A stretch of DNA of 64,000 nucleotides from Dehalococcoidia bacterium (GTDB lineage: Bacteria; Chloroflexota; Dehalococcoidia; GIF9; AB-539-J10), in NCBI GenBank assembly GCA_003552125.1, contig PUON01000154.1, positions 21,965-85,964 of the forward strand. Reading direction: 5' to 3'. The position numbers and the translations under genes were made by a program. Shown here piece by piece: positions 6,342 through 18,799 of this stretch. The notes under the pieces were generated by a model. The model ran no database searches, was not told where the DNA came from, and saw only the letters and a list, made by a program, of their open reading frames with translations. How positions within the stretch are numbered: the stretch's first letter is position 1; each line of letters opens with the position of its first letter.

Positions 6342-6743
6342 CTACAAGAGGCCCCAGTCACGGTACCCTTCGCGGATCACCGCCAGGTACTCCTTCGATG
6401 GAGGGTTCTCCGGATGCCGGCCCTTCCTGTAATACGTCACCGCCTCCACCGCATCTCCGAGATCGTTGAACACGATGACGTTCATTCGATCGTACTCAGT
6501 CGGATATCCCTCATACCGGTCGAGTGCCCGCAGGCAGGCGGCATCGATCTCATAGACGCCTCCCAATACGCGTTCGCCATTCTGCAGGCGTATGGTCGCC
6601 GTTCCGCCACCCGCAATGCGCGATCTGCCGGCAAATACCAGTGCCCAGTTCGGCAAACGGGCGCTGTACAGGCGTTGCGCCTGTGGGCACCGCTGCTGCA
6701 TCTGGCGCAGGCTTAGATTCGAACCATACGCGAAGTACTTCAT
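6342..6743 (-). CDS. Gamma-glutamylcyclotransferase (AIG2/GGCT-like) family protein.
   Basis: MKYFAYGSNL...YEGYP motif. Confidence 0.8.
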   Translation of the reverse strand: MKYFAYGSNLSLRQMQQRCPQAQRLYSARLPNWALVFAGRSRIAGGGTATIRLQNGERVLGGVYEIDAACLRALDRYEGYPTEYDRMNVIVFNDLGDAVEAVTYYRKGRHPENPPSKEYLAVIREGYRDWGLL

Positions 6744-6813
6744 GCAACCCTGTAAGCTTTGACGGCCTCATGCACGAAACTCGCACACGCCTTTGACGAG
6801 TTGCCCATACCCG

Positions 6814-7113
6814 TCAACACTGTAGCTTATCGGTGATTTCGGCGAACTCTTCGATGGGAATCACTGTCCAAGTCTCAGTCTGAATTGCCGAATCAAGATA
6901 CGAGATCGAGAGAGGAACGCTCGCAGCCTTCTCCTCGCTGGGCGCCTCGTACACGAATGCCATGTCGTATGGTCCCAGGATCCCGTACGAGCCCAACAGT
7001 TTGATACCGAGGCCCTCAATTCGCTTCGCGCTGTCCTGCCATTCCTTGCAGAAACTGGAGATGCCCCGTGCCTCCTGATGCGTGAATCGCACCATCGTCA
7101 TATACATCGCCAT
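6814..7113 (-). CDS. GYD-domain protein.
   Basis: ...GSYGILGPYDMAFVYEAPS. The start is set at the internal ATG, 8 nt after a GAGGAGG SD. Confidence 0.7.
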   Translation of the reverse strand: MAMYMTMVRFTHQEARGISSFCKEWQDSAKRIEGLGIKLLGSYGILGPYDMAFVYEAPSEEKAASVPLSISYLDSAIQTETWTVIPIEEFAEITDKLQC

Positions 7114-7245
7114 CGTCAATTCCTCCTCTCTGCTTCAGTAAGCACCCCGTATCACAGCAGGATACCTTGTCCAATCTGACTGTCACGTCGACAGTTCCTC
7201 TGCGCATCGCCACGGTTCACGCCTCGCATTAGGATCGTCGTGCGC

Positions 7246-7386
7246 CTATCCGGCAACGATGAGTATCACCCCGACAAGAATGAAGTATATACCCACAAGG
7301 TAGTTGAGGATCTTGGGGAATATCATCACGATAATACCGAACACCAGGCTTGCGATCCCAAAGAACAATCCTGCTCCAGTCATCAT
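7246..7386 (-). CDS. DUF3096-like small membrane protein.
   Basis: MMTGAGLFFGIASLVFGIIVMIFPKILNYLVGIYFILVGVILIVAG. An AAGGAGGAAGAAGGT SD sits immediately upstream. Confidence 0.6.
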   Translation of the reverse strand: MMTGAGLFFGIASLVFGIIVMIFPKILNYLVGIYFILVGVILIVAG

Positions 7387-7467
7387 ACCTTCTTCCTCCT
7401 TATGCCTGAACCTCTCCACATTGTGCAGAAGGTGTTCGGCAGACAAACCTTCCCACGCGTTTCAAAC

Positions 7468-8448
7468 CTAAGTGCCCTCATCCCACACCAGAGCCGCGGC
7501 TCCAAGCAACGGAGAATCATCTCCGAGCCGGGCCATGATGATGTCCACGTCACACGCCGAGGTGACATATGCACGCTCACGAGCTGTCGCGAAGGCCGGA
7601 CCCAGCAATGCATCGCCAATCTTGGTCAGCCCCCCGCCGACTACCACTACTGATGGATTGAAGATGTTGATAAGATTGCCAAGGCCAACTCCCACATAGA
7701 ATGCAGTGACGCCGATCATCTCCTGCGCCAAAGCGTCCCCCTGCTGTGCTGCGATTGAGACCACCTGGGCATCAACCTTGGCCATGTCGCCACCCACGAG
7801 TTCGCCGATAATACTCGGCTCACCTTGATCCAGTCGATGCACCGTTCTGGCTGCCAGCGCTGTTCCAGACCCAAGGGCCTCCCAACAGCCAGTCCTGCCA
7901 CACGCACACCGAGGGCCATTGACTTCAATAGTCATGTGGCCCACCTCGCCACCTGCACCACAGGAACCCTCAAGAAGCCTGCCTCCGCAGATTATCCCAC
8001 CACCGATGCCGGTACTCACTGTCACGTACACCAGGTCCTGGACCGCTGCGCCGACACCGAACTGCCATTCTCCCAGTGCAGCAAGCGTGGCGTCATTTCC
8101 CAGCCTCACCGGAATGCCGAGCCGATCACCGAGCATCATCTTCAGCGGCGTCCGACGCAGCGCAGTCACGTTTGGCGAATACACAACAACGCCATCGTGT
8201 ACGTTGACGATGCCAGCGCAGGAGACACCGAGCGCCGCCATATCCGTCGTCCGTGCGTCGATCGATGACAACGCCTCTCCGGCAACACGCGCAACCGCGT
8301 CAACAAGTTCCTGGTCATCGTCCGAATCGGGACTGGCGCCGCGCGCCCTTGACACCACTTCTCCGCTCGGCGCAACAACAGCCGCAGCGATTTTGGTCCC
8401 CCCTATATCGACGGTGAGCACTGGCCTGTCCGGTCTCTGGTTCATCAT
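7468..8448 (-). CDS. glk: ROK-family sugar kinase (glucokinase).
   Basis: LTVDIGGTKI ATP-binding motif. ROK zinc motif GHM...CxCGxxGCxE. Confidence 0.85.
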   Translation of the reverse strand: MMNQRPDRPVLTVDIGGTKIAAAVVAPSGEVVSRARGASPDSDDDQELVDAVARVAGEALSSIDARTTDMAALGVSCAGIVNVHDGVVVYSPNVTALRRTPLKMMLGDRLGIPVRLGNDATLAALGEWQFGVGAAVQDLVYVTVSTGIGGGIICGGRLLEGSCGAGGEVGHMTIEVNGPRCACGRTGCWEALGSGTALAARTVHRLDQGEPSIIGELVGGDMAKVDAQVVSIAAQQGDALAQEMIGVTAFYVGVGLGNLINIFNPSVVVVGGGLTKIGDALLGPAFATARERAYVTSACDVDIIMARLGDDSPLLGAAALVWDEGT

Positions 8449-8535
8449 AGTGTTAGCATACTACGAGTGCGCAAGCATTATTGTCAATGTTGCCATAAGC
8501 CATTACAATACATCGTAATGATAAGGTTCGATGAG

Positions 8536-9726
8536 ATGCGCAAGCTGTCCCAGGTGACGCCGTCCAAGATCGTACTTCTCGTGATGGACGGGGTGGGCGG
8601 ATTGCCCGACGACGAGACTGATAAGAGCGAACTTGAGACCGCCCGGTGCCCCAACCTTGACCGCCTGGCCGCAGAGGGTATTTGTGGGCTTACCTACACA
8701 GTCAGCCCGGGAATAACCCCGGGGAGTGCCCCGGGACACATGGCACTTTTCGGTTACGATCCTTCCAGTTATGATCTTGGCCGAGGCATCGTTGAGGCAC
8801 TGGGGCTCGATGTAGAAGTGAATCCCGGAGATGTTGTGGCCCGTGGCAACTTCTGTACTGTCGATGATAATGGCCGTATCACGGATCGCAGGGCCGGCCG
8901 CGTCCCCACCGAGACTACGCGAGAACTCTGTGCTTTGCTTGGCGAGCATGTGCGCGTTTCACAGGCGGAGGTGACCTTCTTCCCGGGCAAAGAGCATCGC
9001 TTCGTGATGCGTTTCCGCGGCGAGAACCTCTCCGCAAACATAGGGGACACCGATCCGCAACACGAGGGCATGGAGCCGCTGGAGGCACGCCCACTCGATG
9101 AATCAGCCAGTGACACCGCTGCAATGATCAACGATGCCGTCAGTCAGGCAGCCAGCCTGCTCGCAGACAAGCATCCCGCGAACATGCTACTACTGCGAGG
9201 CTTCTCTCAGCACCCGGATTTCCCGTCCGTTTCCGATGTCTTCCATTTGACTCCGGCATGCATCGCCACTTACCCCATGTACCGCGGCGTGGCCCGTGTT
9301 GTTGGCATGGACATTCTTCCTGCAGGAGAGTCGCTACAGGATCAACTGGAGACCCTGAGGGAGAACTGGGACAGCTACGACTACTTCTTCGTCCACTACA
9401 AGAAGACCGATGCCCGCGGAGAGGACGGCGATTTCGGGGGCAAAGTCCAGGCGATCGAAGAGTTCGACGCTGCACTACCTTCCATACTCGAGCTCAAACC
9501 CGACGTACTTATAGTCACAGGAGACCATTCCACTCCCGCTGCTCTGGCGATGCATAGCTGGCATACCATACCAGTCGTGCTGTGGGCCAAGTACTGTCGC
9601 CGTGACAGAGTGACGGAGTTCTCGGAGCCCTCATGTCTTCAGGGTGGACTCGGTCAGCTTCACGCAGTTGAACTCATGCCCCTGGCAATGGCCAACGCGT
9701 TGAAACTGAACAAGTACGGGGCCTAG
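8536..9726 (+). CDS. apgM: Archaeal-type cofactor-independent phosphoglycerate mutase (ApgM).
   Basis: KIVLLVMDGVGG... alkaline-phosphatase-superfamily iPGM. The alternative start at 8518 is not excluded. Confidence 0.75.
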   Translation: MRKLSQVTPSKIVLLVMDGVGGLPDDETDKSELETARCPNLDRLAAEGICGLTYTVSPGITPGSAPGHMALFGYDPSSYDLGRGIVEALGLDVEVNPGDVVARGNFCTVDDNGRITDRRAGRVPTETTRELCALLGEHVRVSQAEVTFFPGKEHRFVMRFRGENLSANIGDTDPQHEGMEPLEARPLDESASDTAAMINDAVSQAASLLADKHPANMLLLRGFSQHPDFPSVSDVFHLTPACIATYPMYRGVARVVGMDILPAGESLQDQLETLRENWDSYDYFFVHYKKTDARGEDGDFGGKVQAIEEFDAALPSILELKPDVLIVTGDHSTPAALAMHSWHTIPVVLWAKYCRRDRVTEFSEPSCLQGGLGQLHAVELMPLAMANALKLNKYGA

Positions 9727-13807: not shown

Positions 13808-14413
13808 CTAGAAGAGTGTCAGTTGCTGAGCATCCCCTCCCGTCACGTTCGGCTCATCGGTCGACTTCAGCGTGCCAAGAATCTCCGGGAGCCGACGAAT
13901 ATCCGCCTCGATGATGCTTCTCAGACTGCCCTGGTGCAGTGCAGCCGCTGGATGGTACATGGGGAAACAGACCACTTCACCCACTTGCCTCGGCTTGCCA
14001 TGCACCTTGCTGATGCTTTCGTTGGGGAGGAAGCGGGAGAGGGAGAACCGGCCCAGTGTCACGATTATCTTCGGCTCTATGATCTCGATCTGTCGGTCAA
14101 GCCAGGGCTTACACGCCACTATCTCACCCGGCAGAGGATCTCGATTGCCGGGAGGCCGGCACTTGATCACGTTGGCTATGTACACGTCCTTGCGGGTCAA
14201 ACCGATGGACGACAGCAATTCATCGAGGAACGAGCCTGCGGCTCCCACAAACGGACGCCCCAGGCGATCTTCATTGTAACCGGGAGCCTCGCCGATAAAG
14301 ATGATATCGGCGCGCTCTGTCCCTTCTCCAGGCACGACCTGCGTTCGCTGATGGGACAGGTCACATGCATGGCAAGCCGCCACCTGGCGGCAGAGGTCAC
14401 TGAGGGCCGACAT
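13808..14413 (-). CDS. udgA: Family-4 uracil-DNA glycosylase (Fe-S type).
   Basis: CxxCxL...GEAPG..ED..G.PFVG.AG ... KCRPP.NR.P motifs. Confidence 0.85.
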   Translation of the reverse strand: MSALSDLCRQVAACHACDLSHQRTQVVPGEGTERADIIFIGEAPGYNEDRLGRPFVGAAGSFLDELLSSIGLTRKDVYIANVIKCRPPGNRDPLPGEIVACKPWLDRQIEIIEPKIIVTLGRFSLSRFLPNESISKVHGKPRQVGEVVCFPMYHPAAALHQGSLRSIIEADIRRLPEILGTLKSTDEPNVTGGDAQQLTLF

Positions 14414-14446
14414 TCAAATTGATAGTACCATCAGTATTGTGAGCGG

Positions 14447-15304
14447 TCAATTGCGGCCGTAGTCCTGTTCTTCGTCCTCGTCATCCTCGTCACCCTCATC
14501 TTCCTCTTCCCCCGGGTTCTGTTCCCAGATCGGCTCGGTGAACTGATCGATATATGCAGCCGTGGCCTGCTTTGATATTACGTCCATCTCCAACTCGGAC
14601 TGTCGGGATACCCCCTCAAGCTCATCGGTATCGATCTCAATATCCAGCATCTCGGCGAGTACGCTCAGTACGGCAAGAGCCGCCTTCGGATGTGCCATCT
14701 GCGTGGCAAATCCAGGCACCTCTCCCAACAGGCATAATCCATCGATGCCCCGCTCCTTTGCCCTTCCCAGAATGAGCCCGTTCAGCCCCGCGATCCGGAG
14801 CGTTCCTCGCAGTACGATCTTGTACCTGCTGAATTCCTCCAGCAGCTCGGGGCGTGTCGCCACGCCCCACACTTTCGTCTCCTCCGAATAATGAATCTTA
14901 GTCACTGCGGCGGCACAACTGTAGATACGGCTCACACCAAGTTGCTCTGCGGCATCGAGCACCGTTTCGACCATCTCGTATCCCCTCGGTCGTGGCTGTT
15001 CCTCCCCAATGAACAAGACGAGCCCGAGGCTCTTGTCCTCTTTCTCCCAGTAGTAGAACTTGCTCTCCGGGAACCTGGGTTCCTCAACAACGTTCTCTCT
15101 AACCATTACACCTACAGGCTCGAAGAAATGCACGGGGTCGATCTCCCCCACCTCACGTGCATCCAGCTTCTCTTTCAGATAACGTGCAAGGATGAGCGAC
15201 ACATTACCGATGCCCGGCCACGAAGCCAGCATGACACACCGGTCTACCTTTGGTGTCTCGGTAAGACTTATAGACACTCCCTTTTGCCCTCTGTGTTCCT
15301 TCAC
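14447..15304 (-). CDS. PAC2-family (proteasome-assembly-chaperone-like) protein with a poly-acidic C-terminal tail.
   Basis: N-terminal LASWPGIGNVSLILARYL G-rich motif typical of PbaA/PAC2. C-terminal EEEDEGDEDDEDEEQDYGRN. Start GTG 15304 lies 6 nt after AGGAGG and 1 nt after the pmbA stop. Confidence 0.7.
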   Translation of the reverse strand: MKEHRGQKGVSISLTETPKVDRCVMLASWPGIGNVSLILARYLKEKLDAREVGEIDPVHFFEPVGVMVRENVVEEPRFPESKFYYWEKEDKSLGLVLFIGEEQPRPRGYEMVETVLDAAEQLGVSRIYSCAAAVTKIHYSEETKVWGVATRPELLEEFSRYKIVLRGTLRIAGLNGLILGRAKERGIDGLCLLGEVPGFATQMAHPKAALAVLSVLAEMLDIEIDTDELEGVSRQSELEMDVISKQATAAYIDQFTEPIWEQNPGEEEDEGDEDDEDEEQDYGRN

Positions 15305-15306
15305 GC

Positions 15307-16617
15307 TCAACCTCCTGTGGCGGACACCGAGACTCCCTGGCACAGCAGCGACGGGGTCCACAGGCTGCCGCCCACCCAGCGAGCATCGTTGCCGATAATC
15401 ACCGAAACGCCCATTGTCTCGAGGAGGTTTCCGGCAATCATCGTGTCCTTGACCCTGCCAACTATTTGCCCATCCTCGACCTTATAGCCGAGCAGCACGT
15501 TGCCACCAAAATCGCCCGCCAGAAGGTTTCCCTGACCGGCGCCGATAAGCTCCTCCACCACAAGGCCTTCCTTGATCCCGGCAAGCATCTCCTCGAAGGT
15601 CGCCTCTCCTGGCTCGATCACAAATGCGCTCATGCCGGGCCGGACCTGGCTGCGCGCATCGGCCCTTCTTCCACTGCCCGTGCTTTCGACTCCGGCAAGG
15701 GCTGCGGTCTGCAGGTCATACATGAATTCACCCACAACTCCGCGCTCGGTCAGGCTAATCCGTCGGGAACGAGTACCCTCGGCATCGCACGGGGCACTGG
15801 CGGTACTCTCTCCCAGCGTCGCATCGTCCCGCATCGTCAGACTGACATCAAATACGCGCTCACCCTCTCGACCCGCAAGCCGCGAAGCCTTTTCCAGAAC
15901 GTTCTTTCCATTGAAGGCTACGGCAAGAGGCATGAGCAGGGCTGCTCCCACTCCATGCGGAGTGAACAACACCGGGTATGTACCTGTTGATATCACTGCA
16001 CCCTGCGACGCTCTTTCAAGCTGCCGCAGCATTGTCTGCGTCAATTCATCGACATCCGTGAAAAGGTGTGTGGATCTCATACTGTCGCCAATGAACAGCA
16101 TGTCGGTCCCGTTGACACGCACACCTTCCAGCGCGACGCCAAGACCCGTCTTATGGTACGAGTTGTCGAGACCGGAGCTATTGGCAATTCGGACATGGCC
16201 TGTGCTCGCCGTCACCATTCCCTCGCACTGAAGCTGTGGGTCACGTGCAGTCACTCGCTCAATAACCCTGCATCCCATTCCGATCATAGTATCCGTATCG
16301 AGGGCAACAACCCTCTCATCGTACGTCGGCACCTCGGGCAGCATCTCTTCGCCACCGAAATTCCACCCGGCCAGTGCACCAAACGCAGCGGTCTGAACCG
16401 CCATCTGCACGAGACGGTCAACATCAATAGCACCACCTGCTGACGCGAAGCCTACTCTGCCGTTTCTCACGATTCTGAGCGCCACGCTGCTGCTCTGGCG
16501 ACTCTCCACCTGCTTCAGTCGATTGGCCTCAAAGTGCACAAGGGTGCTCTCCGAGCGAACTGCGAACACCTCGGCCTGTTCAGCTTCTCTCGTCGCAGCC
16601 TCAAGGAGACGTTCCAT
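15307..16617 (-). CDS. pmbA: TldE/PmbA-family metalloprotease subunit.
   Basis: Family-level similarity to PmbA/TldE. The start ATG overlaps the tldD stop (TAATG). Confidence 0.8.
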   Translation of the reverse strand: MERLLEAATREAEQAEVFAVRSESTLVHFEANRLKQVESRQSSSVALRIVRNGRVGFASAGGAIDVDRLVQMAVQTAAFGALAGWNFGGEEMLPEVPTYDERVVALDTDTMIGMGCRVIERVTARDPQLQCEGMVTASTGHVRIANSSGLDNSYHKTGLGVALEGVRVNGTDMLFIGDSMRSTHLFTDVDELTQTMLRQLERASQGAVISTGTYPVLFTPHGVGAALLMPLAVAFNGKNVLEKASRLAGREGERVFDVSLTMRDDATLGESTASAPCDAEGTRSRRISLTERGVVGEFMYDLQTAALAGVESTGSGRRADARSQVRPGMSAFVIEPGEATFEEMLAGIKEGLVVEELIGAGQGNLLAGDFGGNVLLGYKVEDGQIVGRVKDTMIAGNLLETMGVSVIIGNDARWVGGSLWTPSLLCQGVSVSATGG

Positions 16618-17984
16618 TACCGACCTCCTACCACGCACCGGCTGATTCGGATGTGGGGACTGCCGTTGGAGACCGGAAGTGGAGACTGACCCCCCTTTCC
16701 ACAACCTCCGCCCTGGTTCATATCCAGTTCATTGCCAATGGCATCGATACGCTCCAACGTGGTGAACACGTTCCCGGTCAATACGACGGGACGAAGCATT
16801 TCCGCCACCTCTCCGTTCCGAATCATGTACGCCTCTCCGGCGGAGAAAGTGAACATCTCGAGACTTGTCTGTCCACCATACCAGTCCTTGACGTACACGC
16901 CCTCTTCGATGTCTGCAAGCATGTCTGCCAGAGATACGTCCCCCGGCTCGATGTACGTGTTACTCATACGCACTATGGGCCCATGCCGATAGCTGATCGC
17001 CCTCGCATTGCCGGAGAATGGTTCTCGCATGCGCGCAGCAGTCTCACGTGAATGCAGCCTTCCTTCCAGAACGCCATCGTGTATGAGGGCAGTCCGTTGA
17101 CCTGGTGTTCCCTCATCATCGTAGGCGTAGCTGCCACGCAACGACGGCAGCGTGGCGTCGTCGACGATATTGAGGTGGCGTCCTCCAAACCTTCGACCCA
17201 GTACCATCAACTCCCTCAACTGTGGGTTGTGATACACAAGGTCTGCCTCGGACAGGTGTCCAAAAGCCTCGTGAGTGAACACGCCGGCCAGCACAGGATC
17301 AAGCACTACCGTGTACTCGCCACCTTTCAGGCTGTATGCATTGAGCAGGGATGCAGCACGTTGGGCCACATCGTGCGCCTGATCATGAAGCATCATAACG
17401 GGACCGAGATCTCCCACCGTGCCGACGCTCACGCCAGACTGCTGAACCTCATCTCCATCTCTTGCAATCGCAGTGAGTCTGAGAGACAGGTCGGGGACTT
17501 TCTGCTCGATGTAGGTGCCATCGGAAGACGAGTAGCGAACTGTCCTGTCGGTATCTCCATAGAGGATGTGTGAACTCTGAATGCGCGGGCTGGACATAAT
17601 GATGTCGTTGTACTCATCCAGCATCTGCTTCTTCTGCTCAAGCGACACCTGCGAGATGCTCACTGCGGGCAACGAGGTGACACTTGCCTCAACAGGCTCA
17701 CGTTCGGGCAATGACAGATGGTCCCCACTCGAATAGCGCGCTTCAGCGACTGCCTTGCGCACGCTGGCTTGAAGCGAATCCAGGTCGTTGAAGCTCGCGA
17801 ACCCCCATCCCCCATTCACCAGCGCACGGACGCATCCGCCACTGTCGCTCAGTATGCTGGCCTCCTCCAGTGTCCTACCACGATAGGAGATACGCGTGAC
17901 CATCCGCTCTTCCACACGGATGTCAACATGGTCGGCGCCATGACTTCGCAAAGCTTCGAACAGATGGTCTCTCATGGGGGTCAA
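16617..17984 (-). CDS. tldD: TldD metalloprotease.
   Basis: HEAFGH zinc motif. Family-level similarity to TldD. The start is either TTG 17984 or ATG 17975. Confidence 0.85.
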   Translation of the reverse strand: MTPMRDHLFEALRSHGADHVDIRVEERMVTRISYRGRTLEEASILSDSGGCVRALVNGGWGFASFNDLDSLQASVRKAVAEARYSSGDHLSLPEREPVEASVTSLPAVSISQVSLEQKKQMLDEYNDIIMSSPRIQSSHILYGDTDRTVRYSSSDGTYIEQKVPDLSLRLTAIARDGDEVQQSGVSVGTVGDLGPVMMLHDQAHDVAQRAASLLNAYSLKGGEYTVVLDPVLAGVFTHEAFGHLSEADLVYHNPQLRELMVLGRRFGGRHLNIVDDATLPSLRGSYAYDDEGTPGQRTALIHDGVLEGRLHSRETAARMREPFSGNARAISYRHGPIVRMSNTYIEPGDVSLADMLADIEEGVYVKDWYGGQTSLEMFTFSAGEAYMIRNGEVAEMLRPVVLTGNVFTTLERIDAIGNELDMNQGGGCGKGGQSPLPVSNGSPHIRISRCVVGGR

Positions 17985-18163
17985 CGCACTAGAATCAACG
18001 AGGGTGACCCATTGTACCTTAACCGGTGTCAGTGGAGCAAAGAATGCAGAGGCACAGACGACTATGTGACCGGCACCATCGTACCTCTAAAACATGACCT
18101 TTGAGGGATGGACAGGACACAGATTCTAGAGCTACAGTCAGTTGACAACAGGTGTAGTGAGGA

Positions 18164-18389
18164 AATGACAAGACGACAGATCGTTCCACAGAATCCACCG
18201 GGACTCCTGACGACAGCTCAGGCTGCGAACCTCCTTAATGTTCACCCCAATACCGTGCGCAACTGGGCCGATGCAGCATTGCTTCCCTCCTATCGAATAG
18301 GTCCGCGTCGAGACCGCAGATTCCGCCGCGATGACGTGGAATCGCTACTAACGGACCATCTGGGCAATCCTGCCAGTCTTCCGGATTAG
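18164..18389 (+). CDS. BldC-like / excisionase-family (MerR-type) helix-turn-helix DNA-binding protein.
   Basis: LLTTAQAANLLNVHPNTVRNWADAALLPSYRIGPRRDRRFRRDDVESLL is a Xis-family HTH. ATG 18164 with a GTGAGGAA SD. Confidence 0.65.
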
Positions 18390-18541
18390 CCCCATTAACG
18401 TCCCCTTGCATGTTTGCAGGTCGCTGGGCTTGGATCACCCTTTGCGGTATACTTTGCATGAGGGCGAGCGGGTGCAGCCCAACTTTGTCCGCCAGCGATT
18501 AAGGCCGACGCCCCAACGACACAGATAAGGAGGCCGTGTGG

Positions 18542-18799
18542 ATGAGGTCCAGTCTGATCGGTAAGATCGAGAAAGCCAGAAGATACGCAAAGGAACCGGG
18601 CCGTGTGACACTGACAAGTCTCACGGCCAATTTTCATGGCGAGAATGCCGACCACAGCGTCAGCTATGCCGGCGGACAGTGGTCGTGCAGCTGCGGCTTC
18701 TTCGGACAGTGGGAAACCTGCAGCCACGTGATGGCGCTCCAGGAGATGTACCGTACCGAGCTGCCTTCCGAGGCGCTGGAATCCTTCCCGGAGGAGTAG
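18542..18799 (+). CDS. Mini SWIM zinc-finger protein.
   Basis: CSCGFFGQWETCSHVMAL fits the CxCx(n)CxH SWIM pattern. An AAGGAGG SD lies 8 nt upstream of the ATG. Confidence 0.5.
   Translation: MRSSLIGKIEKARRYAKEPGRVTLTSLTANFHGENADHSVSYAGGQWSCSCGFFGQWETCSHVMALQEMYRTELPSEALESFPEE

Follow-up and report, generated by a model that had tools for sequence, protein, structure and literature searches.

PAC2-family proteins occur widely among bacteria from which, by published accounts, the proteasome is missing, including the Chloroflexota and the Planctomycetota, home of the largest related PAC2 group. What such a protein might do there is the question raised by a 64,000-nucleotide (nt) stretch of DNA from a Dehalococcoidia bacterium (contig PUON01000154.1; the whole stretch is referred to here as the window), in which tldD, pmbA and a PAC2-family gene are packed tightly on the minus strand between positions 14447 and 17984. 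tldD and pmbA (tldE) encode TldD/E, a near-universal peptidase, and the initial annotation of this locus proposed that the PAC2 product is a chaperone or gating partner of this protease. Our analysis indicates that the three genes form a discrete operon that is widely, but not universally, kept together in Dehalococcoidia, and leads us to favor, tentatively, a PAC2 product that works without a proteasome and cooperates only loosely with TldD/E.

tldD, pmbA and a PAC2-family gene form a predicted operon

The segment contains the following features:

16617..17975, minus strand: tldD, encoding the catalytic subunit of the zinc metallopeptidase TldD/E (452 amino acids (aa); HEAFGH at residue 235)
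15307..16617, minus strand: pmbA/tldE, encoding the non-catalytic partner of TldD (436 aa; no HExxxH)
15311..15316, minus strand: Shine-Dalgarno sequence AGGAGG of the PAC2 gene, within the last pmbA codons and 6 nt upstream of the GTG
14447..15304, minus strand: PAC2-family (PbaB-like) gene (285 aa; GTG start; PF09754 and PbaB matches)

Pfam searches bear out the family assignments of the initial annotation for all three genes. TldD matches PmbA_TldD domains 1, 2 and 3, while PmbA/TldE matches domains 1 and 3, has no HExxxH motif and starts in overlap with the tldD stop codon. A hidden Markov model (HMM) search keeps the PAC2 product in PF09754 (143 bits). TldD aligns with E. coli TldD (5NJ5) at an E-value of 7.5e-47 across the HExxGH motif, and its C-terminal cysteine motif GGCGKGGQ aligns with E. 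coli CGKEGQ; it thus combines the PmbA_TldD domains, the HExxxH zinc motif and the C-terminal cysteine ligand of this metallopeptidase. Its best NCBIfam match is the archaeal model NF040952 (299 bits, below the equivalog cutoff of 635), and it also falls below equivalog level on the enterobacterial model NF008006 (161 bits against a cutoff of 513). The window TldD is therefore a family member that is an equivalog of neither the archaeal nor the enterobacterial curated group.

Both gene junctions are tight. The tldD stop codon (TAA, 16619-16617) shares a base with the pmbA start codon (ATG, 16617-16615) to give TAATG, and a Shine-Dalgarno-like TAGGAGG precedes the pmbA start at 16630-16624. The pmbA stop codon (TGA, 15309-15307) is followed by two nucleotides (GC) and then by the PAC2 GTG (15304-15302). 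The TAATG overlap and the separate AGGAGG of PAC2 (15316-15311) are as first described, but the one-nucleotide gap previously assigned to the second junction is in fact two nucleotides. Support for the GTG start comes from homologues with N-termini that align with residues ahead of the internal ATG. An identical PAC2 protein is present in both NCBI and Logan assemblies. At the other end of the segment, the boundary originally drawn at 17984 is the TTG that opens the maximal tldD open reading frame (ORF). We dropped this TTG as the tldD start in favor of the ATG at 17975, which is conserved as CCCCATGAGA in near relatives.

We identified putative promoters on both sides of the trio:

18011..18040, minus strand: predicted operon promoter (-35 TTGCTC, 18040-18035; 18-nt spacer; -10 TACAAT, 18016-18011)
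14422..14450, minus strand: predicted udg-rnj-ftsK promoter (-35 TTGACC, 14450-14445; 17-nt spacer; TG-extended -10 TACTAT, 14427-14422)
13808..14413, minus strand: udg, family-4 uracil-DNA glycosylase (PF03167), which heads the downstream unit and lies outside the operon

Upstream of tldD, a TTTGCC/TTTGCT...TACAAT/TAGAAT pair recurs at the same position in most of the 15 relatives aligned, amid diverging surroundings; a simple consensus scan missed this promoter because its -35 matches at only 3 of 6 positions. Downstream of PAC2, udg4, rnj and ftsK lie on the same strand, which the initial annotation had read as one continuing run. The strand is right, but the run is broken by a conserved promoter, found in the consensus scan, that fills the 33-nt PAC2-udg spacer and whose TTGACC -35 overlaps the PAC2 stop codon. 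The arrangement TTGACC-N17-TAnnAT is shared by the 20 relatives aligned, with a spacer of varying sequence; the exceptions at the -35 are a TTGAAT in one locus (L022) and an unclear hexamer in another (L073). The same scan found no promoter-like site on the minus strand inside the operon. Since two class-wide conserved promoters bracket exactly tldD-pmbA-PAC2, these genes are predicted to be a discrete three-gene operon, with udg-rnj-ftsK served by a promoter of its own. A terminator scan returned three matches within coding sequence, fewer than in shuffled sequences, and no convincing terminator between PAC2 and udg, so some read-through into udg may occur.

The udg ATG (14413) is 8 nt past the -10 element, and the udg-rnj-ftsK transcript is therefore probably leaderless or nearly so. 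Leader lengths at the other promoter appear to differ between clades: the predicted tldD leader is about 35 nt in the window's clade, and in five loci of a clade at about 63% identity (L016, L023, L029, L053 and L060) tldD starts about 7 nt past the -10, which would give a leaderless mRNA. Divergent from the tldD promoter is a small HTH_17/MerR-like gene (18108-18389, plus strand), a possible local regulator that is kept only in the nearest relatives (L002, L003, L007 and L014). Beside it, an 87-aa ORF (18536-18799, plus strand) has a SWIM-like CxC...CxH pattern and no Pfam match.

The trio is conserved in most, but not all, Dehalococcoidia loci

A scan of one genome per species yielded 208 relatives. 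We examined the best 80 of these 208, all from Dehalococcoidia or Chloroflexota metagenome-assembled genomes (MAGs), and counted gene arrangements in the 68 Dehalococcoidia loci with enough upstream sequence:

tldD-pmbA-PAC2: 56 of 68 loci
pmbA-PAC2 without tldD, with relA or other genes upstream: 4 of 68 loci
PAC2 behind a 45-67-codon 3' stump of pmbA: 4 of 68 loci
PAC2 without any pmbA: 4 of 68 loci

In relatives with 60-94% PAC2 identity, pmbA and PAC2 overlap or lie no more than about 16 nt apart. Counted from the pmbA stop to the PAC2 start, 16 loci have a distance of -4 nt and 15 have +1 nt, and most of the others have 16 nt or less. Compared with the window, PAC2, TldD and uracil-DNA glycosylase each have a median identity of 63%, FtsK of 59%, RNase J of 58% and PmbA of 49%. 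The order PAC2-udg-rnj is retained wherever downstream sequence existed.

A more divergent lineage separates the trio from its surroundings. Here, with 47% identity in PAC2, 56% in TldD and 45% in PmbA, the order tldD-pmbA-113 nt-PAC2 is retained, whereas both flanks differ from those in the window: an ABC transporter precedes the trio, and HEAT-repeat, GNAT and aminotransferase genes follow it. The persistence of the trio amid changed flanks argues that the trio, not a larger block, is the conserved unit, and we regard this as the best evidence on that point.

In 12 of the 68 loci, tldD alone or both tldD and pmbA have been lost from the locus and PAC2 is intact, which argues against a dedicated partnership with TldD/E. 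The C-terminal motif FTEPIWEQ and the acidic tail that follows it are identical whether the adjacent tldD and pmbA are present, partial or absent. We had considered that the tail might co-vary with TldD/E; this pattern does not bear it out, and the tail therefore cannot be linked to the adjacent peptidase genes. In the three PAC2-only loci that we read (L052, L057 and L075), PAC2 is preceded, at a distance of about 130 nt, by a promoter-like TTGCGT-N17-TA(G/C)AAT. An intact gene behind such a site suggests that PAC2 is maintained, and probably expressed on its own, in PAC2-only lineages. Gene-neighborhood analysis, the check proposed with the initial annotation, therefore gave a divided answer: the trio is syntenic in the majority of Dehalococcoidia loci and in the 47%-identical lineage, but it is broken in a minority and absent from the other clades sampled.

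Several individual loci bear on how the arrangement changes. In four loci (L024, L028, L035 and L062), an intact pmbA is coupled to PAC2 with no tldD within 4-7 kb upstream, where divergent relA or thiolase-like genes are found instead; either TldD has moved elsewhere or PmbA works without TldD. Eight others (L034, L056, L061, L071, L052, L057, L075 and L077) form a stepwise decay series from pmbA stumps to no pmbA. Of the two PAC2 loci in the MAG CAZWDC01 (L034 and L048), one retains tldD-pmbA and the other is left with just a pmbA stump, which could reflect strain heterogeneity in the bin or a true duplication.

The PAC2 product resembles archaeal PbaB but differs at its C-terminus

Residues 26-241 of the PAC2 product match PF09754 over positions 2-212 of the 215 in the profile, with an E-value of 1.6e-41 and a score of 143 bits, above the cutoff of 25.8. 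On the archaeal equivalog models TIGR00162 (113.9 bits against 200) and TIGR00161 (64.9 against 199) the protein stays below the cutoff, which places it outside these groups but related to them. The closest solved relative is P. furiosus PbaB (3VR0; phmmer E-value 1.6e-20 over residues 6-271, 26% identity), and in the phmmer alignment the segment PESKFYYWEK...LVLFIG aligns with the beta4-beta5 hairpin through which the PbaB homotetramer is assembled. An AlphaFold2 model (mean predicted local distance difference test score (pLDDT) of 80) shows a PAC2 core and a long C-terminal helix at residues 227-255, followed by a disordered segment at residues 256-285 (pLDDT < 50). Foldseek searches with this model ranked PbaB first (E-value 7e-22, TM score 0.8), followed by PbaA, Rv2714, Ta1441, Rv2125 and eukaryotic PAC2; the top 41 matches in the PDB are all PAC2-type proteins (PbaB, PbaA, Rv2714, Rv2125 and human or yeast PAC1/PAC2-type chaperones).

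The N-terminal WPGIGNV motif and the acidic tail ending in QDYGRN (GEEEDEGDEDDEDEEQDYGRN) are present as the initial annotation described them, and it was also correct that the protein has no canonical HbYX motif: the end, ...EEQDYGRN, has no penultimate tyrosine. The C-terminal region is encoded as follows:

14519..14542, minus strand: FTEPIWEQ codons (residues 255-262), a C-terminal motif at the end of helix 227-255
14450..14518, minus strand: acidic tail codons (residues 263-285, ending DYGRN), disordered, no HbYX

FTEPIWEQ is invariant in 19 of 19 aligned homologues (59-89% identity), in the context ...AxxIDxFTEPIWEQ, after which comes an acidic stretch that differs in length. Both the length and the end of the tail vary among homologues: most end in Asp/Glu runs, and a D[YF]GRN end is found only in the nearest subclade.

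PAC2 genes of other clades have different neighbors and tails

We sampled further bacterial PAC2 clades by a wider profile search, which returned mainly Dehalococcoidia, through cluster representatives, several of which lie on contigs of about 1 kb, and by a metagenome scan with poor peptide patterns, which contributed 2 loci. In none of the other PAC2 clades sampled does TldD/E lie beside PAC2. Their contexts are instead:

dnaN-PAC2: a second clade, with one Dehalococcoidia-named member and a related tail, T[VL]PLWER
hrcA-grpE-dnaK-dnaJ-rsmE-PAC2-mtaB-lepA: another PAC2 clade
PAC2 adjoining an unknown 473-aa gene: another PAC2 clade
a tandem pair of PAC2 paralogues (271 and 298 aa) with a DUF3786 gene behind it: locus L095, positions 6444-9310
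solitary PAC2 genes: Planctomycetota

The tandem paralogues of L095 recall the archaeal PbaA/PbaB pair. Among 150 cluster representatives (P0121-P0270), the largest class, with 79 members, carries the C-terminal module ELDRxGVFxxYEDRFLDLF and is from Planctomycetota by source names. Other tail classes have FTVDYRD, IExFLK, hydrophobic-Asn/His or YIG ends, and 20 of the 150 representatives end in Asn. Such varied tails on a constant PAC2 core suggest docking to different partners.

No proteasome genes were found beside the PAC2 loci examined

PbaB is a homotetramer that requires HbYX motifs on flexible C-terminal segments for binding to the 20S proteasome, and these segments hold unfolded proteins without ATP (PMC3605417). 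The window PAC2 product has no C-terminal HbYX, the feature expected of a PbaB-type activator. As the initial annotation stated, the window contains no proteasome genes: among the 48 ORFs scanned in its 64 kb, we found no proteasome, HslV, Clp or Lon domains. The called neighbor genes of 23 further PAC2 loci likewise contain no proteasome or HslV domain, and tblastn with approximate T. acidophilum beta-subunit and E. coli HslV queries, a weak test, gave no match in 1.44 Mb of PAC2-flanking DNA plus the window. According to Fuchs et al. (PMC5666114), proteasomes are absent from the Chloroflexi although PAC variants occur there, so a PAC2 protein without a proteasome is already on record for the phylum.

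Elsewhere in the window, Rfam and tRNA scans gave no matches, and two overlapping ORFs (211 and 298 aa) at 264-1722 on the plus strand have no Pfam match at E <= 1e-5.

A loosely cooperating chaperone or adaptor is the preferred reading

Our preferred reading, which we hold tentatively, is that the PAC2 product is a proteasome-independent, PbaB-like chaperone (holdase) or adaptor that is co-expressed with TldD/E and cooperates with it loosely. The trio would be transcribed from the conserved promoter upstream of tldD, ending where the udg-rnj-ftsK promoter begins, and TldD and TldE make up the familiar hollow zinc peptidase, a heterodimer that trims polypeptides in the unfolded state. The PAC2 product is a bacterial PbaB relative in which the HbYX docking end has been replaced by FTEPIWEQ and a disordered acidic tail. 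It may act as an ATP-independent holdase or adaptor without a 20S proteasome, binding non-native polypeptides through PbaB-like C-terminal "tentacles". Through translational coupling, the PAC2 product and TldD/E would be made at a constant ratio; chaperoning and peptide clearance could then be co-regulated, possibly with hand-over of substrates between the PAC2 product and the peptidase. Such cooperation is plausible, though seemingly not obligatory: where tldD and pmbA are gone from the locus, PAC2 retains its sequence and, apparently, its expression. The strong conservation of PAC2 relative to PmbA (median identity 63% versus 49%) is consistent with this reading, as is the presence of an intact PAC2 with the same tail in 8 loci without pmbA and 4 without tldD. 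Several observations weigh against it. The chaperone role is extrapolated from a homologue of 26% identity; the TldD/E linkage is confined to one Dehalococcoidia-centered clade and may be inherited gene order; and in Foldseek searches the PAC2 fold also resembles, at low significance, nucleoside phosphorylases and MTAN, which leaves room for an unrelated PAC2 activity.

A less probable alternative is that the genes are neighbors only: PAC2 would have a function unrelated to proteolysis or proteostasis, and its co-transcription with tldD and pmbA would be an accidental economy within an inherited housekeeping gene order. The collinearity of tldD-pmbA-PAC2-udg-rnj-ftsK across the class, with PAC2-udg-rnj kept wherever it could be followed, fits this idea, as do the heterogeneous housekeeping contexts of other PAC2 clades (dnaN, the dnaK cluster, and solitary genes in Planctomycetota). 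In the study of Bai et al. (2017), M. tuberculosis Rv2125 and Rv2714 reportedly showed no proteasome function. However, the conserved promoters part PAC2 from udg and not from pmbA, the tight stop/start coupling is upheld over large divergence, and it is the trio rather than the larger block that survives in the divergent lineage. Another proposal is that the PAC2 product is a dedicated TldD/E subunit, cap or substrate-delivery adaptor that docks through FTEPIWEQ and the acidic C-terminus. In its favor, the operon is discrete with conserved boundaries, pmbA and PAC2 are coupled in most loci in the same style as the known partners TldD and TldE, the trio persists where both flanks have changed, and pmbA-PAC2 is still coupled in the 4 loci that tldD has left. 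The biochemistry is also compatible: the narrow channel of TldD/E admits polypeptides only in unfolded form (PMC5810440), and unfolded proteins are what tails of the PbaB type bind (PMC3605417). We nevertheless consider this proposal unlikely. PAC2 stands without an adjacent intact pmbA or tldD in 8 of the 68 loci, its C-terminal motif unchanged and, in 3 of these 8 PAC2-only loci, with a promoter-like site upstream; the sister clade with the T[VL]PLWER tail adjoins dnaN rather than TldD/E; none of the five other clade contexts has TldD/E near PAC2; the "basic mouth/acidic plug" of E. coli is not conserved in the window TldD; and a literature search found no paper linking the two families.

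For the partnership proposed in the initial annotation, then, the tight coupling and discrete operon speak in its favor, but the restriction of the linkage to one clade, its loss in 12 of 68 loci and the unrelated contexts elsewhere speak against it. A classical role, in which the PAC2 product helps or activates a protease encoded at another place in the genome (a 20S proteasome, HslV or Anbu), appears highly improbable. Its closest characterized relatives, PbaB and PbaA, do act on the archaeal 20S proteasome, and the genome was inspected over 64 kb; set against this are the missing HbYX and a tail end that is not conserved within the family, the reported absence of proteasomes from Chloroflexi (PMC5666114), the absence of proteasome and HslV domains from the 48 window ORFs and from the neighbors at the 23 other loci, and the weak but negative tblastn test in 1.44 Mb of flanking DNA.

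The components of this operon are known families, and the TldD/E-PAC2 operon arrangement itself is not described in the literature we searched: we found no paper describing it, and a Thermus aquaticus genome paper that names TldD, TldE and the proteasome together was set aside as irrelevant on the content of its title and abstract. A lineage with such a coupled operon could offer a route both to the role of PAC2 and to the substrates and regulation of the peptidase. If the PAC2 product were a dedicated partner, a proteasome-activator-type module would have been reused for a different self-compartmentalized protease, giving PAC2 its first function in bacteria without a proteasome and TldD/E its first known accessory factor. 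If the link were mere gene order, what remains would be a housekeeping operon of the ordinary kind that includes a well-conserved, chaperone-like orphan gene. A working TldD/E-PAC2 partnership is thus best viewed as a testable lead, with computational support limited to one lineage.

Comparison with known systems

The microcin-processing metalloprotease TldD/TldE of E. coli (5NJ5) shares with the window TldD the HExxGH motif, the C-terminal cysteine ligand and the domain order. The window tldD and pmbA/tldE genes are adjacent and overlapping; in E. coli, tldD and pmbA are not known to form an operon, nor is a PAC2 gene known. Of the two NCBIfam models, the archaeal one gives the window TldD a better score than the enterobacterial one (299 versus 161 bits), and the protein has no counterpart of the 9-residue acidic "plug" loop of E. 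coli TldD, which falls in a gap near residues ~199-200. Two of the three basic channel-mouth residues of the E. coli protein are also not conserved (R305 to Leu, K446 to Asp). We had considered whether the acidic PAC2 tail could plug a basic TldD mouth in trans; the missing loop and the Leu and Asp substitutions leave this idea unsupported.

Among PAC2-type proteins, eukaryotic PAC1/PAC2 (Pba1/Pba2) belong to the same Pfam family and share the fold (Foldseek E-values of ~1e-9 to human assembly intermediates), but they act as heterodimers on the alpha-rings of nascent 20S proteasomes and are only 10-14% identical to the window PAC2 product. The bacterial PAC2 fold is shared with the actinobacterial proteins Rv2125 (5UN0), Rv2714 (2WAM), SAV PAC2 (3MNF), Cgl (2P90) and SCO1997 (3E35), which differ in their proteasome-bearing hosts, their tails, their 15-21% identity and the absence of a link to TldD/E. 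The M. tuberculosis pair, the only bacterial PAC2 proteins known to have been studied, reportedly plays no part with the proteasome and so sets the precedent for bacterial members that act independently of it. Archaeal PbaA (3WZ2/5Y9N) and Ta1441 (3GAA) have family and fold in common with the window protein but are weaker matches; they are pentameric and HbYX-bearing, with the C-terminal helix packed on the core (PMC3605417). The closest counterpart is PbaB (3VR0), which has the same three-layer alpha/beta/alpha core, the conserved FYYW beta-hairpin segment, and the long C-terminal helix leading into a disordered acidic end. The window PAC2 product, at 26% identity, differs from PbaB in having the invariant FTEPIWEQ and a longer acidic tail in place of HbYX, in belonging to a phylum reported to be without 20S proteasomes, and in being encoded in an operon with TldD/E.

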